The notes under the pieces: generated by a model
Told to the model about the DNA's origin: nothing
The model's database searches: none
Seen by the model: only the letters and a program-made list of their open reading frames with translations
In this document: piece after piece, positions 12,971-35,804 of the stretch
Layout of the letters: each line of letters begins with the position of its first letter
Numbering within the stretch: position 1 is the stretch's first letter
Virus record (IMG/VR): IMGVR_UViG_3300020045_001971
Location: 1-36,712 of that record
Length of the DNA stretch: 36,712 nt
Strand: one strand, 5' to 3'
From: a virus
Lineage: Duplodnaviria > Caudoviricetes
Program-made: the position numbers and the translations under genes

Positions 12971-13449
12971 CCATGCTGAAAACCATCAGCGATACAGCGA
13001 TTGAACCAGCTTTGGACCTACTGCCGTCTAGGATGGACTCGGCAGAGGCAAGGGTCATGTTGTTGGCGATTGGTTTGCAAGAATCTCGGTTTCTGCACCG
13101 TAAGCAGATCAAAGGTCCGGCTCGGGGCTTCTGGCAGTTTGAGCGTGGCGGTGGTGTTGTAGGAGTACTCAACCACGCGTCTACCGCTCATCACGCAAAC
13201 CTGATCTGCCAAGCCCGAGGCGTCGAGCCCATGTCTACCGACGTTTACATGGCGCTTGAACGGGACGATGTTTTGGCGGCGTCGTTTGCGCGTCTTTTGC
13301 TGTGGACGGACCCTTACCCTATCCCGACTGAAAAAGACGCGGCATGGGACTTGTATGAGCGTACATGGCGCCCTGGACGCCCGCATAGGTCTAGTTGGGA
13401 TGCGTTTTTTGAACAAGCACAAGAGTTCGTGATTGGGGGTGATCTATGA
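12967..13449 (+). CDS. Endolysin, lysozyme / lytic transglycosylase-like fold
   Basis: AIGLQES catalytic-Glu motif and ARGFWQFE; ATGA overlap with upstream gene. Confidence 0.8.
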   Translation: MTMLKTISDTAIEPALDLLPSRMDSAEARVMLLAIGLQESRFLHRKQIKGPARGFWQFERGGGVVGVLNHASTAHHANLICQARGVEPMSTDVYMALERDDVLAASFARLLLWTDPYPIPTEKDAAWDLYERTWRPGRPHRSSWDAFFEQAQEFVIGGDL

Positions 13450-14462
13450 ATGGGCTTCTTGGATTCCTCCAATCGGCCAGCAACACAGCAGCCAACACCG
13501 TATCCGGCCCGGTTGACCTGATTGCGGCTGGCCTGCGCAAAGTTGGCGTGCCGGTCCCAGAAGACCCGGTTGCGGGTGCTAACTGGATGAAGCATCACGG
13601 CTTGCTACGTGATGTGCCTGACGGTCCGGCCAAGGTGCTTGGCGAGACTGCGGGCATGTTGACCCCTGCCCTTGCTATGCAATACGCACCTCAGATTGCA
13701 TCGGTAGCCAACAAGGCTATCTCTAATGCAATGGCTCCTACCACTGCAAACAAGGAATTAGGCGCTATTGTGTGGCACGGTTCGCCTCACAAGTTTGACC
13801 GATTTGATTCCAGCAAGATCGGAACGGGTGAAGGTGCGCAGGCTTATGGGCATGGGTTGTATTTGGCTGAATCGCCGGATGTGGCAAAAAGCTATATACC
13901 TAAAACAGCAGATGGTGCGGCTCCAACTCCTGATGGGCTGCGTCAATCTATTCAAACAATGCGAACAAGATTGGCTGATGCTGAAAAAAATGGTGGCTAC
14001 TCTCCAGCCGTTATGGATAGGCTGCGCAAGACCATCGCTGATCTTGAGTCTTCAGACTTGAGCGCCCGCGCTCCGTCTCTCTACAAAGTAGACCTTCCTG
14101 ACGAAGCCATTGCCAAAATGCTGGATTGGGATAAGCCAATGTCAAAGCAAAATGCAGCAGTCAAAAAGGCTTGGCAGGAAAGCAAGAAAATGCTTCCGCC
14201 GAATGCGCTTGATGATCTTGGCGGCGATTTGTCTTTAATGTACGGTCCTAATGTCCGACCTCAAGATTTTCTAAACACATGGGAATCATTGGGGCAACGT
14301 GCTGGTGGTGAGGCTGCTTTGCAAAAAGCAGGCATCCCCGGAATACGTTATCTAGACGCTAACAGTCGTGGCGCAGGATCAGGCACAAGCAACTTTGTCG
14401 TGTTCCCTGGCAATGAAAGTATCTTGAGCATCCTTGAGCGCAACAGTCAAGCGCTGAAATAA
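13446..14462 (+). CDS. ART-PolyVal-like ADP-ribosyltransferase domain protein
   Basis: VWHGSPHKFDRFDSSKIGTGEGAQAYGHGLYLAE..AKSY, LYKVDLP, GIPGIRYLD, NFVVF. Confidence 0.7.
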   Translation: MNGLLGFLQSASNTAANTVSGPVDLIAAGLRKVGVPVPEDPVAGANWMKHHGLLRDVPDGPAKVLGETAGMLTPALAMQYAPQIASVANKAISNAMAPTTANKELGAIVWHGSPHKFDRFDSSKIGTGEGAQAYGHGLYLAESPDVAKSYIPKTADGAAPTPDGLRQSIQTMRTRLADAEKNGGYSPAVMDRLRKTIADLESSDLSARAPSLYKVDLPDEAIAKMLDWDKPMSKQNAAVKKAWQESKKMLPPNALDDLGGDLSLMYGPNVRPQDFLNTWESLGQRAGGEAALQKAGIPGIRYLDANSRGAGSGTSNFVVFPGNESILSILERNSQALK

Positions 14463-18549: not shown

Positions 18550-18812
18550 GCTGCGCTCCCGGTGGCCTTAGCGATGGCGTCTCGGGCTTCTTCAACGCGT
18601 GTCATGCTCAAGCCACGATCAACAATTTCCTGAAGCAACCTGAGCAACTCAGGCGCGGCAGCGATCAATTGAGCGTCTTTTTGTCGGAATGCCTTTGCAA
18701 TCAGCCCACGCTTTGGCGCATGAATTGGGTACTCTGCTTTTGCAAAGTGGCTGGCATAGATGGTGTAGCGTTCAGCTTTCCAATTTCCAGGTGTGTGTTT
18801 TGCTTGCGTCAT
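18546..18812 (-). CDS. Conserved phage protein (HTPGxW / LIAAAPELL family)
   Basis: KHTPGNW..DAQLIAAAPELL..AIAKATG. Confidence 0.8.
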   Translation of the reverse strand: MTQAKHTPGNWKAERYTIYASHFAKAEYPIHAPKRGLIAKAFRQKDAQLIAAAPELLRLLQEIVDRGLSMTRVEEARDAIAKATGSAA

Positions 18813-18886
18813 GCTGACCTCGGAAAAATAGGGCAGTGCGCCACAAAGTGACCCTCTCTACCGCAGTAGGTGCAAATTGGCTTCAT
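18809..18886 (-). CDS. 25-aa CCHC zinc-knuckle micro-protein
   Basis: MKPICTYCGREGHFVAHCPIFPRSA fits CX2CX4HX4C; AGGAG RBS; ATGA overlap with next gene. Confidence 0.75.
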   Translation of the reverse strand: MKPICTYCGREGHFVAHCPIFPRSA

Positions 18887-18911
18887 TCCAATCTCCTGTT
18901 GTTGAGCCTTT

Positions 18912-18957
18912 ATTCTGTACCTGTTCTTGGGTGTGGTGTATTGGGGGAAACCCTTAG
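18912..18957 (-). promoter_or_regulatory. Promoter with conserved upstream box (copy 1)
   Basis: CTAAGGGTTTCCCCCAATAC; CAGAAT begins 40 nt after the box start. Confidence 0.6.
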
Positions 18958-19292
18958 ACACTCTACTTTTCTTTCCAGGCATAGGATGACCCCGAGTGCT
19001 CCCGACTGGCCTTTAGGGTCCCGTCTTGTGAGCATCTCTTAGCCATCTTCTTCTACTTGAAACTACCTTAAAAGAAAAAAGGTCGTTTCCAAAAAAGACT
19101 GCTACTCGCTGAACGCCGTATTCTGTCTATCAGGCACCCATTTCGTGGGCCAGTCGCTGCGTCGGTCTGCATCTGCCTGTTTTTGTGGTCGCTACGGAAC
19201 GCCACGCCGTCGGGGTCATCACTGAAACGGCATCGGTACATGAGTGCGGCCCCGACATTGGCCCATTAGCTAACCCGCTCTGAGGGGTAACA

Positions 19293-19422
19293 AGATTGGT
19301 TAGTAGGTGTGGCCGGTGCTGGTCTCCGGCTTGGTGTCTCTCGTTCTGTTTCAGCGGGCCTAGTGGCACCCAGCGCCGCAATGTGCGCATCAGCCTGCGC
19401 ATTCACACCTACTAACCAATCT
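19293..19422. repeat. Perfect 19-bp inverted repeat enclosing smaller hairpins
   Basis: AGATTGGTTAGTAGGTGTG (19293-19311) and CACACCTACTAACCAATCT (19404-19422). Confidence 0.9.
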
Positions 19423-19433
19423 CATAGCTGCAA

Positions 19434-19597
19434 TAAAAAAACCCTGCTCAGGAGGCTTTGGGCTTTGGTATTGCCGCCTTTAAGTGTGCGCTCGGGGAAA
19501 CGAAACCCAACACACTTATCGACTCTTTCCAAAACCTGCCTGAGCAGGGTCTTCTTCATCGTTTCGCAGCCACAACCGGGTTACCAAGCCGATTGAT
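19434..19597 (-). ncRNA. Structured leader / antisense RNA (c4- or P4 CI-like architecture)
   Basis: 12-bp closing stem 19441-19452 with 19539-19550, then a U-tract; inner 8-bp stem; 5' hairpin; two internal complementary site pairs; G-U pairs favour the minus strand. Confidence 0.65.
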
Positions 19598-19603
19598 GTG
19601 CAT

Positions 19604-19632
19604 ATTCTAGGCGAAAAAAAAGCCCCGGTCAA
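19604..19632 (-). promoter_or_regulatory. Sigma70 promoter
   Basis: TTGACC (19632-19627), 17 nt, TAGAAT (19609-19604). Confidence 0.8.
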
Positions 19633-19639
19633 GGGGCTT
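19613..19639 (-). terminator. Rho-independent terminator with the -35 hexamer in its loop
   Basis: AGCCCC-TTGACC-GGGGCT followed by a T-run, just after the stop at 19645. Confidence 0.8.
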
Positions 19640-19644
19640 GTGTG

Positions 19645-20007
19645 CTAGTGGCTGCGCCTGATCTGCGCCAGCTTTTCGCGTATGTGTGCTGGCATCGGTG
19701 CGCCCTGGTGAGCCTCGATCTGAAGCAATACGGGGTCTTTGTCCGTCGCCTTGACCTCCTTGACTGGCTCAAACTCGGCGCCATCCCATCGCATCTGGTT
19801 GAGGTAGGTTGCGGGCATGGGGATGTATTCCCCATTGTTTTTCTTCCAGTCTGGTGTGGTCGCCATGTACTTGACGTGGGCAATGATGGTTTCAGCCTGC
19901 GTCCAGCAGAGCATTTTTACCCACTTCTGACGGCAAACAGCCTTGCCAGTCTTGCGGATGCTTTTAGGCCAAGCTGTCCAGAAGTCTTCGAAGCCGTGTT
20001 CTTTCAT
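19645..20007 (-). CDS. Stand-alone replication-initiator C-terminal-like domain
   Basis: FEDFWTAWPK..K..YIPMPATYLNQMRW, normally the C-terminus of phage initiators; only 120 aa, no wHTH. Confidence 0.7.
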   Translation of the reverse strand: MKEHGFEDFWTAWPKSIRKTGKAVCRQKWVKMLCWTQAETIIAHVKYMATTPDWKKNNGEYIPMPATYLNQMRWDGAEFEPVKEVKATDKDPVLLQIEAHQGAPMPAHIREKLAQIRRSH

Positions 20008-21952: not shown

Positions 21953-22579
21953 ATGAAAAACATTGCAGCCGCATTTGTTAAAGCGCAAAAGAGTTTTGCC
22001 CCTGCGCTCAAGACCAACACCAATCCGCATTTCAAAAGCCGTTACGTCGGCCTGGATGGGTGTATCGAAGCCGTCATTGACGCTTTGAACACTCAAGGCA
22101 TTGCACTTCTTCAGCCAACCCATGAGTGCGAGTCTGGCGTAATGGTGGAGACTCTATTTGTTCACGAGTCAGGCGAAACCCTGAGCGGTGGCAAGCTGCA
22201 TGTTCCGGCGTCCAAGAACGACCCGCAGGGCTACGGTTCCGCGCTGACCTACGCCCGACGCTACAGCCTAATGGCAGCTTGTGGCATTGCCCCAGAGGAT
22301 GACGATGGAAACGCAGCCAGCCGTGGCAAGCAAGCCCCCAAGATGCAGCATCGGCCCGTTGATGGCGCACAAGTGCCAGAAGATGAAAAGCCGTTCTTGC
22401 AAGACTTGGCAAACGACCTCATCAACGTCATCAAAGAGCAGCGTAAACTGACCGATGGCATGGCAATGCTGCACGCGGCCAACCTAGAAACAGAACAGCG
22501 TGTTTATTTGTGGTCGCTGCTTCCAAGTGACGTTAGAAAGGCAATTAAAGATGCTCCAAAAAATACAGCAGAGGCTTAA
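21953..22579 (+). CDS. erf: ERF-family ssDNA annealing protein
   Basis: NPHFKSRY..HESGE..QGYGSALTYARRYSL..GIAPEDDDGN. Confidence 0.93.
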   Translation: MKNIAAAFVKAQKSFAPALKTNTNPHFKSRYVGLDGCIEAVIDALNTQGIALLQPTHECESGVMVETLFVHESGETLSGGKLHVPASKNDPQGYGSALTYARRYSLMAACGIAPEDDDGNAASRGKQAPKMQHRPVDGAQVPEDEKPFLQDLANDLINVIKEQRKLTDGMAMLHAANLETEQRVYLWSLLPSDVRKAIKDAPKNTAEA

Positions 22580-23054
22580 ATCTCTTTTGTCTTATTGCCC
22601 AGAAACAGGCAATTTTTACTGGGCAGATAAGCCATCGAAGTTTAACCATATAAAGGTTGGTGAAGTAGCTGGGACAATAAGCAAGCATCACGGATACGTT
22701 GTGATTGCTTGTGACAAAAAACTGTATAGAGCACATCGTTTGGCATGGTATTTTTACCATGGAGAATGGCTAAATAAACCATTGGAAATAGATCACATAA
22801 ATGGCATTAGGTCGGACAACAGAATTGGAAATTTAAGAGTTGCTAATAGACAGCAAAACATGCAAAACGAACGCAAAGCTAGAGTAAACAACAAATCTGG
22901 CTTTCTAGGTGTGCATGAGATAAACGGCGTTTATAGAGCAAGAATTTGCGTAGATGGAAAAGAAGTATTCTTAGGTCAATTTAAAACGCCAGAAGAAGCA
23001 TCAAGCAAATATTTAGAAGCAAAACGTAAATATCACAATTTTTCCACAATTTAA
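22551..23054 (+). CDS. HNH-AP2 homing endonuclease
   Basis: YCPETG, AHRLAW, IDHINGIRSDNRIGNLR, KSGFLGV..YRARI..LGQF; AT-rich. Confidence 0.9.
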   Translation: MLQKIQQRLKSLLSYCPETGNFYWADKPSKFNHIKVGEVAGTISKHHGYVVIACDKKLYRAHRLAWYFYHGEWLNKPLEIDHINGIRSDNRIGNLRVANRQQNMQNERKARVNNKSGFLGVHEINGVYRARICVDGKEVFLGQFKTPEEASSKYLEAKRKYHNFSTI

Positions 23055-24451: not shown

Positions 24452-24664
24452 ATGACTAATGCAGAACATCGAGAGAAAAACTTAGCCGCTCATTTGATTG
24501 AGCAGGCTTATTTCAGCGTAAACACCTGGGTAGATCGTGGTTACATTGTCGAAGAAGACCGGGACGCCGCTATCTTGGCCTCGCTGTTGAAGGCTGTGCA
24601 GATTGAGGCAGAACAACACGGTCTGACGATTGATAGGCTATTGCGTGAGATTGGGCAAAACTGA
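24452..24664 (+). CDS. Hypothetical protein (possibly leaderless mRNA)
   Basis: 70 aa from ATG 24452, 6 nt after the putative -10. Confidence 0.6.
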   Translation: MTNAEHREKNLAAHLIEQAYFSVNTWVDRGYIVEEDRDAAILASLLKAVQIEAEQHGLTIDRLLREIGQN

Positions 24665-24665
24665 T

Positions 24666-25175
24666 ATGAAGCAGGTCGACCCCAACAAGGCAGTTGAATT
24701 TCGTGATCAACTTATGTCCCGTTTTTATATTGAGGATGGAAAACTTTTGCGAAAAGTAATTGACGGGAAAGGGTTAAAAGTTGGTACAGAAGCTGGAACT
24801 GTCAACAAAGCAGGATACAGGCAAGTAAAAATAGATCGAAAGCTGTATTACACGCATCGATTGATATTTCTTATGCACTACGGCTTCATGCCAGTAACTG
24901 TTGATCACATCGATGGCAATAAGCAAAACAACAAGCCAGAAAATTTGCGTGCGGCAAGTTATAGACAAAACAATTGCAATACAAAAGTAAGAAAAAATAA
25001 TACTTCTGGCGTCAAAGGTGTTTATTGGTCGTCTACTTTTAATTCTTGGCATGTTCGTGTTTTCAAAAACGGCAAAGCAGTAGTTTCCAAGTATTTCAAA
25101 TCATTCAATGAAGCAAAAGACTTTAGAAATACTGAGGCGGCCAAAGAGTACGGAGAGTTTTCATGCGAACAATAG
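24666..25175 (+). CDS. HNH-AP2 homing endonuclease
   Basis: THRLIF, VDHIDGNKQNNKPENLR, NNTSGVKGVYW; AT-rich. Confidence 0.9.
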   Translation: MKQVDPNKAVEFRDQLMSRFYIEDGKLLRKVIDGKGLKVGTEAGTVNKAGYRQVKIDRKLYYTHRLIFLMHYGFMPVTVDHIDGNKQNNKPENLRAASYRQNNCNTKVRKNNTSGVKGVYWSSTFNSWHVRVFKNGKAVVSKYFKSFNEAKDFRNTEAAKEYGEFSCEQ

Positions 25176-35026: not shown

Positions 35027-35325
35027 TGGCCCGTCAACGCTTTATCCAAGACCCAAAGACCCATAAGCTGATTCCCGCTGAGGAATGGTACGACTCGCAA
35101 GAGCCTGCCGCGCCTTACGTCATTCCCGACATTCAGCCTTATCAATCCATGCAAACGGGCGAGATGATTACGTCCCGCTCTCAGCATCGTGCGCATCTCC
35201 GACAGCATGGGTTGATCGAAATTGGGAATGAGGTGAAAGCGGCAATGACGCAACACCGCCCCAAAGACGACCGGGAAGGCCGACGCCGTGCCATCGCTGA
35301 GGTTTTGTCGGCTAAGGGGTACTGA
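35026..35325 (+). CDS. Conserved phage protein upstream of scaffold
   Basis: 99 aa; PDIQPYQSMQTGEMITSRSQHRAHLRQHGLIEIGNE. Confidence 0.75.
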   Translation: MARQRFIQDPKTHKLIPAEEWYDSQEPAAPYVIPDIQPYQSMQTGEMITSRSQHRAHLRQHGLIEIGNEVKAAMTQHRPKDDREGRRRAIAEVLSAKGY

Positions 35326-35804
35326 TGAATCTTGATCTGTCTATTTTTCTCCAGGTGCTTGATTACAATCAGGAGACTGGTCGTTTTACATGGAAGATAG
35401 CGCCAAGGCCTTGTATCAAGGCAGGAGATCAAGCTGGAACCGTAAACAGCAAAGGCTATAGGCTGATTAAGTTTCAGGGCAAGCACATATTGGCGCACCG
35501 GCTTGCATGGTATTTTGTTCATGGCCGGTTGCCAGTAGATCAGTTAGATCATATTGATTGCAATAGAGACAACAACAGCATAAAAAATCTTAGAGAATGC
35601 AATAATGCGCAGAACGCTCAGAGATCGTCTGTTGGGAAAACAAACAAGACAGGCCATCGCGGTGTTTATCTTGTGTATAAAAGCAAAAGTTACCAAGCGC
35701 GTATTTCTTACAACAACAAGCGCAAAAATCTAGGGTGTTATCAAAGTTTTGATGAGGCCGTAGAAGTGTATGAACTCGCTAGGCAGCTTGTTCATTTTCA
35801 GTAA
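35325..35804 (+). CDS. HNH-AP2 homing endonuclease
   Basis: YNQETGRFTW, AHRLAW, LDHIDCNRDNNSIKNLR, TGHRGVY..YQARI; AT-rich. Confidence 0.9.
   Translation: MNLDLSIFLQVLDYNQETGRFTWKIAPRPCIKAGDQAGTVNSKGYRLIKFQGKHILAHRLAWYFVHGRLPVDQLDHIDCNRDNNSIKNLRECNNAQNAQRSSVGKTNKTGHRGVYLVYKSKSYQARISYNNKRKNLGCYQSFDEAVEVYELARQLVHFQ

Follow-up and report, generated by a model that had tools for sequence, protein, structure and literature searches.

A putative self-repressing antisense attenuator of phages, with a structured RNA as its output

A locus on the minus strand of a phage genome, placed 3' of the 120-aa RepC gene, combines a predicted promoter, a leader with two short sites (X and Y), a stem-loop carrying the complements of both (Y' and X') and, behind it, a structured non-coding RNA, called cargo in the following. 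The question raised by this arrangement is what such a switch would respond to, and what it would control. The sequence-only reading had proposed a two-site antisense switch of the kind known from P1 c4 and P4 CI, which would gate a non-coding locus and might serve copy control or immunity. The explanation favoured here, at a probability of roughly 60%, is a self-repressing antisense attenuator that sets the output of a structured RNA phage by phage, probably limiting DNA replication.

The window, i.e. the whole stretch of 36,712 nucleotides analysed (IMGVR_UViG_3300020045_001971), is a phage record of 36.7 kb that is complete and carries direct terminal repeats; portal, terminase and major head genes were recognized in it by profile matches of the ORFs. 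No CI-like repressor was found among the window ORFs scanned (34 + 15), and the small ORFs across the locus gave no PHROG or Pfam match. The claim that no protein gene lies downstream holds for about 550 nt, after which a 25-aa zinc-knuckle ORF begins at 18886; this ORF has its own ribosome site, is common to the relative L026, and its product could be an RNA-binding partner. Tyrosine integrases were not detected in the carrier genomes; the one record matched out of 42 (L249) was rejected as a chance pattern match, the element itself being absent from it. A search of 185,579 GTDB genomes returned a single match, a 3.2-kb contig, and cargo occurrences in Acidovorax phage AP1 and in Burkholderia suggest Betaproteobacteria as hosts. 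Elsewhere in the window, a 338-aa ORF between lysis-type genes (13446-14462, plus strand) shows weak partial matches to large virion proteins (PHROG 873, 31411), and three HNH-type endonuclease ORFs lie on the plus strand (22500-23054, 24630-25175 and 35325-35804), two of them confirmed by PHROG 99 and the third by sequence likeness.

The features of the locus are collected in Table 1. Every motif of the sequence-only reading was found on the minus strand, exactly where it had been placed. The predicted promoter matches 10 of 12 consensus positions and is the sole promoter-like site detected between 18500 and 20200 by a consensus scan, where 0.7 are expected. In the relatives, a -10-like word is present upstream in 79 of 92 and a -35-like word in 84 of 92, as raw counts with no null computed. 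The location of the -35 hexamer within the loop of the upstream terminator is true of the window; it was scored in only one of 92 relatives, itself doubtful, and the overlap is incidental. For the long stem-loop ending in a U-tract, with Y' and X' in nested order, the region 19560-19430 has a folding z-score of -7.8, and none of 200 shuffles folded as well. Four sequencing runs were compared, all of them contigs and probably all DNA. One contig spans 19411-20007 and, among the differences listed, is changed at 19520 and 19566 with the sites unbroken; as its two joints rest on 20 letters, no weight is placed on these differences.

Table 1. Coordinates of the features at and around the switch locus, with the basis of each assignment.
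Feature	Position	Strand	Basis or remark
RepC, stand-alone ("headless") C-terminal domain of a lambda-O-like initiator, 120 aa	20007-19645	-	PHROG matches
Upstream operon's intrinsic terminator, whose loop holds the -35 hexamer	19639-19614	-	Fold; overlap window-specific
Predicted sigma-70-type promoter, TTGACC-17-TAGAAT	19632-19604	-	-35 at 19632-19627, -10 at 19609-19604
Leader hairpin presenting site X (19590-19582)	19595-19573	-	Fold; X core invariant or compensated in relatives
Site Y, variable address	19565-19559	-	Covariation with Y'
Outer stem P1, 5' strand	19554-19531	-	Predicted to self-fold before the 3' strand is made
Arm P2, Y' (19503-19497) in apical loop	19523-19478	-	Fold and covariation
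Short hairpin P3 (GGC...GCC), X' (19470-19461) in and beside the loop	19475-19461	-	Consensus fold
P1 3' strand and U-tract, predicted intrinsic terminator	19459-19435	-	Fold, family model
Post-terminator segment complementary to P3 strand	19436-19427	-	Predicted role: masking of X' and locking of the read-through fold
Element B, separate inserted RNA cassette	19423-19292	-	20-bp perfect outer stem, conserved core
Cargo, conserved structured non-coding RNA	19290-18978	-	Shared 5' module, inner stem, terminal CTATG
CCHC zinc-knuckle ORF, 25 aa, first gene behind the locus	18886-18809	-	zf-CCHC E 8e-4, just under cut-off

Relatives were collected by a pattern of the 3' side of the element, in which X' was fixed; at least 120 viral loci were found, 94 of them distinct, and 91 could be parsed. 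Among the matches listed, Y and Y' were complementary over at least 6 bp in 81 of the 91 cognate pairs, compared with 360 of 8190 non-cognate ones, and the parsed loci use at least 45 distinct Y address words. Because X' had been fixed by the first pattern, the scan was repeated with X' left free, and 82 of 103 distinct loci were kept among the matches listed, under a member filter that still fixes part of X'. In these 82 members the fourth position of X faces its X' partner as U-A in 76 cases and as C-G in five, with no mismatch; a sixth C-G row was read by eye. On a tree built with the sites masked, the C-G rows correspond to three changes, two of which are forced by well-supported branches; X/X' shows compensatory change in two to three lineages. 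The sequence-only reading had named compensatory change in both pairs as a check, and the site pairs do covary across the relatives; as judged from the alignments, the X:X' and Y:Y' pairings are almost certainly real.

When 52 relatives are aligned, their consensus fold forms a three-way junction; of its 30 pairs, 20 have substitutions at both positions, and the three pairs of P3 are invariant in all 52. Site Y lies in the loop of a 3-bp hairpin in the relatives, and the columns of this hairpin (38-40/49-51) covary as well. A model built without the window finds the window once, at 19597-19432, with 44 bits and an E-value of about 2e-7; on sequence grounds, it belongs, as a divergent member, to a family of phage RNAs that is not catalogued. 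A literature search, which covered parts of PMC5737381 and of the supplements of PMC10690425, found no description of the attenuator family, and five motifs were not found in the six of nine supplements of PMC10690425 that were covered. Two other attenuator folds placed before the same cargos show covariation of their own (23 of 24 cognate versus 64 of 552 non-cognate pairs, and 10 of 10 versus 6 of 90).

The variability of the address was evaluated in 30 pairs of relatives with identical P2 flanks, whose loops of 6 nt show a mean of 1.8 differences, 19 of the 30 pairs being different; loop variation despite identical flanks suggests diversifying selection on the address. These data bear on a reading in which X:X' and Y:Y' serve only as tertiary contacts within the molecule, be it a stable small RNA or a timing device, nothing acts in trans, and the variability is drift. 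All the covariation does lie within one locus, and alone it is insufficient to show trans action, but variability is far higher in the paired 6-mers than in the flanking sequence, which is the opposite of a usual structural stem, and the leader hairpin resembles the c4 target hairpin; a purely intramolecular role is rated as very improbable.

Two further downstream matches, at 19335-19327 (complementary to X) and 19090-19083 (complementary to Y'), had been reported. Both are present; neither is conserved, and neither is supported as a functional target. The first was rejected since its ACC is fixed by a covarying pairing of element B and its AAGCCG by the consensus of that element, and ACCAAGCC is kept in none of 21 element B homologues. 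The second sits in a window-specific, self-folding insertion of the cargo RNA. Nor is there a recurrent second target in the family: copies of the own Y were found in 1, 4 and 6 of 54 loci within 200, 400 and 600 nt downstream, against a background of 4, 8 and 12%, and no second downstream copy of the own Y' was seen in the relatives.

Element B itself is outside the switch. An internal pairing of 3-6 bp in its core covaries in 18 of 18 homologues, which occur near tRNA genes in Alcaligenes phage CASP1 and also in Iodobacter phage PhiPLPE; the element has no Rfam match and is possibly a processed tRNA-like RNA. The cargo of relatives usually starts about 20 nt past the U-tract. Other long-stem inserts, some with T-loop-like sequence, were observed inside the cargo in L058, L061 and L111, and long-stem inserts between terminator and cargo in L324, L331, L341 and L343. 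Inserts within or just before the cargo mark the locus as a hot spot for RNA cassettes.

How the sites would act was analyzed by stepwise minimum-energy folding of the window transcript. Y:Y' forms when the transcript has reached 19497, X:X' at 19461-19450, with the 5' strand of P1 folded on itself at this stage, and the terminator appears from 19440; the cis pairs and P1 are mutually exclusive in these folds. In minimum-energy folds of 92 relatives, cis Y:Y' is found in 68 and cis X:X' in only 32, both counts coming from a program blind to loop-loop pairs. The duplex between the post-terminator segment and the P3 strand outscored dinucleotide shuffles in 68 of 76 relatives and the duplex of a control segment in 59 of the 76, and it is class-specific in only five of eight classes; such folding predictions suggest a distinct read-through fold, in which X' would be masked.

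Since Y has no covarying partner other than Y', pairing in cis must be the action of the leader. The direction of the switch and the role of its payload, as we infer them, can be described in four steps. Sequence and covariation show pairing of Y with Y' and of X with X', with Y as a hypervariable address. In the folding predictions, first Y:Y' and next X:X' pair in cis while the 3' strand of P1 has yet to be made, and cis pairing, together with the self-folded 5' strand of P1, would let some polymerases read through, after which the post-terminator segment would pair with the P3 strand. By analogy with P4 CI and P1 c4, the terminated RNA, perhaps leader-less, would accumulate and, acting in trans, bind X and Y on newly made transcripts; cis pairing would be blocked, P1 would close and transcription would stop. 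Silencing would be confined to phages that share the address, which would amount to incompatibility or superinfection immunity without a protein repressor. Finally, gene context suggests that the gated cargo RNA may replace the origin-binding half of an initiator, the cargo being most simply an R-loop or pre-primer used by the headless initiator domain or by a phage primase-helicase. Read-through in cis with repression in trans, which rests on modelling and analogy, is considered likely. For a replication-related payload the odds appear about even, and a payload that is specifically a primer or R-loop is possible, though rather doubtful.

The opposite direction has a precedent. IsrK of Salmonella Gifsy-1 is made from one promoter as a short terminated and a read-through isoform, of which the short one acts on its own long transcript and can activate, not repress (PMC4825925, in the part available). 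By an IsrK-like positive feedback, cis pairing would favour termination and trans binding would free read-through. This precedent for activation and the finding of cis X:X' in a minority of the relatives' folds are contrary to the explanation favoured here, and a weak positive trend between the length of the Y-to-P1 linker and that of P1 (rho 0.20, p 0.052) would fit cis pairing on a closed P1. The exclusion of P1 by the cis pairs in the stepwise folds of the window speaks against such feedback, and diversification of the address would better fit escape from repression by relatives; altogether, positive feedback seems improbable. IsrK also differs in that it activates translation of downstream ORFs, whereas no ORF lies close behind the terminator here.

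Most relatives carry, behind the terminator, a non-coding structured RNA of 250-400 nt, belonging to one of many families. The cargo of the window has an inner long-range stem (19220-19210/18995-18985), followed by the terminal CTATG at 18984-18980; among 14 sequences of this type, both partners are changed in 12 of the 47 predicted pairs, and no Rfam match was found for it. In L057, L073 and L075 the cargo behind the same attenuator family is the Rfam motif Betaproteobacteria-1 (RF02932, 101 bits), a family different from that of the window's own cargo, and in MW202545 this motif is found behind a single-site attenuator. Betaproteobacteria-1 RNAs were also observed at L453:3979-4095 and L451:3930-4053, respectively an orphan on a Burkholderia chromid, where no attenuator or phage gene is evident, and Acidovorax phage AP1, where a cargo-type RNA lies directly 3' of the primase gene, without an attenuator. 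The presence of the same cargos behind two other covarying attenuator folds argues that both switch and cargo are modules which can be exchanged. In L076, L107 and L114 a protein ORF appears to be under the direct control of the attenuator; in the last two, a short conserved ORF directly 3' of the terminator is apparently gated instead of a cargo.

The cargo is single-copy in 18 of 18 carrier genomes and often precedes, as read by eye, a fresh promoter-like or A/T-rich stretch. In the supergroup to which the window's cargo belongs, 17 of 25 cargos have the terminal CTATG, compared with 4 and 2 of 25 controls; the word is present at the ColE1 origin too. A role of CTATG as a start codon was rejected: by eye, it is in frame with the next gene in the window and in L055 and out of frame in L002, L004 and L082. 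G-rich 15-mers, with at least 10 G, occur in 24 of 53 cargos, 11 of them from one family, and in 3 and 10 of 53 controls. Repetition of the cargo 3' end inside the cargo was too weak to be retained (mean 6.6 vs 6.0 nt). CTATG and the G-rich tracts are leads and no evidence of ColE1 homology. Seven cargo-family nhmmer profiles searched against NC_001371 gave a best E-value of 1.6, weight-matrix tests were not significant, and PLSDB held no meaningful match to the cargo; two Variovorax matches were discarded as lying inside coding DNA (one inspected).

The gene context suggests a link of the cargo with replication. RepC matches only positions 176-258 of 288 in PHROG 9474 and 179-257 of 383 in PHROG 270, and RepC-like ORFs of 117-165 aa are present in 16 relatives. 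Its structural model has a pLDDT of 78, with best VIA Z-scores of 4.8 and 4.6 (SPP1 G39P); neither a PDB sequence match nor a Foldseek match at E 0.001 was obtained. Initiator loci were compared after filtering: 71 of 80 full-length loci were entered and 42 kept after flank and near-copy filters, as were 15 of 24 RepC loci. Counting known cargo types only, a cargo lies less than 1 kb from 14 of the 15 distinct headless loci, which were found by protein alone, and at none of the 42 distinct full-length YdaU-type loci (flanks up to 3 kb); the association is not fully independent, because the cargo patterns were partly seeded from L002, L021 and L023. Known cargo was likewise missing from anywhere in 10 genomes picked by a full initiator, and one cargo type also from 16 records picked in the same way. 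MW202484 shows the same arrangement, RepC then cargo; overall, the cargo may be either upstream or downstream of RepC. In L026, the flanks of the window enclose an int-alpA-like RNA and a full initiator instead.

Some related arrangements were observed around initiator genes. An int-alpA-like RNA precedes many full-length YdaU-type initiator genes (L372-L449; L018:2685-2758), suggesting that it regulates initiator translation. As read by eye, a CI-like leader directly precedes the full initiator gene in L442 and L445, and a two-site terminator leader of a fourth kind, with a variable address of its own, does so in L394, L415, L424 and L429, at a distance of 165 nt. A second stand-alone O-like C-terminal family (PHROG 678) lies near cargo RNAs at L337:4471-4845 and at four similar loci. 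GC-skew extremes track transcription blocks, with no consistent marking of the cargo.

The context is less uniform when loci are picked by attenuator or cargo pattern: the RepC profile was matched in only 9 of 40 such records, 29 of 108 loci adjoin replication genes, and 34 of 108 adjoin terminase genes. With the same attenuator, the cargo could be merely a long structured 5' leader, or else a non-coding RNA acting on its own, and what the switch controls would be early or downstream gene expression, for immunity or timing, rather than replication initiation. This reading is in line with the many loci placed before terminase or small early genes, with the three loci where an ORF appears to be gated, with the four genomes holding both a cargo and a full-length initiator (G022, G023, G031 and G007), and with the orphan chromid copy. 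It is at odds with a cargo found on either side of RepC, kept in single copy, absent from the 42 full-initiator loci and often followed by its own promoter-like or A/T-rich stretch, and it is considered unlikely, though less so than the other two alternatives.

Among known RNA systems, P1 and P7 c4 are the closest in layout: antisense RNA and targets are contained in one transcript, and a three-stem junction exposes two recognition loops. The antirepressor operon controlled by c4 is icd-ant, and the second, downstream c4 targets are named a2/b2. The sequence-only reading had suggested a comparison with the Rfam c4 models, and this failed: no match was obtained at the gathering score, nor at E up to 10 in 18800-19800. 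C4 (RF01695) and c4-a1b1 (RF03163) gave no match in searches of the phage's own genome or, with E up to 1 allowed, in 20 relative loci, and the c4-2 motif none in all-family Rfam scans of the window. The element is of c4/CI-like kind and is not a c4 family member; of the proposed two-site antisense switch, the covarying pairs stand, whereas c4 membership, the downstream targets and the promoter within a terminator as a family trait do not. In contrast to c4, the outer stem ends here in a U-tract terminator, the sites follow the nested order X-Y...Y'-X', with the variable address in P2 and the near-constant site in P3, Y has no downstream copy, and the payload is a non-coding RNA instead of an antirepressor operon. 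In c4, too, one of the two recognition loops is variable and sets specificity, and the RNA is processed by RNase P (PMC5320573, in the part available). The second hairpin of c4-a1b1 resembles the X leader hairpin of the window, and a relative attenuator type shares a loop word with the P4 row of the c4-a1b1 alignment (both from the portion of PMC2864571 covered).

The CI RNA of satellite phage P4 (seqA/seqB/seqC) is a leader-derived small RNA, which pairs with an upstream site and causes premature termination ahead of the replication functions (PMC4825925, same part). Unlike P4 CI, the locus has no seqC-like second full target, only the short segment past the terminator that can pair with X'; the antisense fold doubles as the predicted intrinsic terminator, and the carriers are without a tyrosine integrase. 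Both c4 and P4 CI are matured by RNase P to a stable RNA of 77-79 nt, whereas the element described here ends in the U-tract.

The antisense RNAs of ColE1 and of pT181/pIP501 are counter-transcripts; no plus-strand promoter-like site was found here between 18500 and 20200 by the consensus scan. The ColE1 RNA I/RNA II pair and the pT181/pIP501 systems nevertheless offer a parallel, since antisense RNA controls an RNA step that limits replication and incompatibility is seen (PMC5415839 and PMC3167613, each in part), and plasmid motifs of like length have been proposed to act in replication (PMC5737381, in the part covered).

The broadest interpretation, held tentatively and at somewhat short of even odds, is that non-integrating phages, as a widespread group, have replaced the DNA-binding half of their initiator by a portable all-RNA replication cassette, in which address-coded attenuators of several interchangeable folds meter swappable primer or origin RNAs; the latter would comprise several unrelated folds, Betaproteobacteria-1 being one. 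If so, these phages would possess RNA-only copy control, with dozens of incompatibility groups. The locus itself places a probable RNA logic of the c4/CI type in phages other than integrating prophages and couples it to a predicted terminator of its own; the natural code of at least 45 addresses is a ready library of potentially orthogonal transcription attenuators. Should the payload start replication, an orphan Rfam motif and several uncatalogued RNAs would gain a testable function, the many environmental phages with only the C-terminal half of an O-like initiator would be explained, and plasmid-like copy control or carrier states would be indicated for phages without an integrase.
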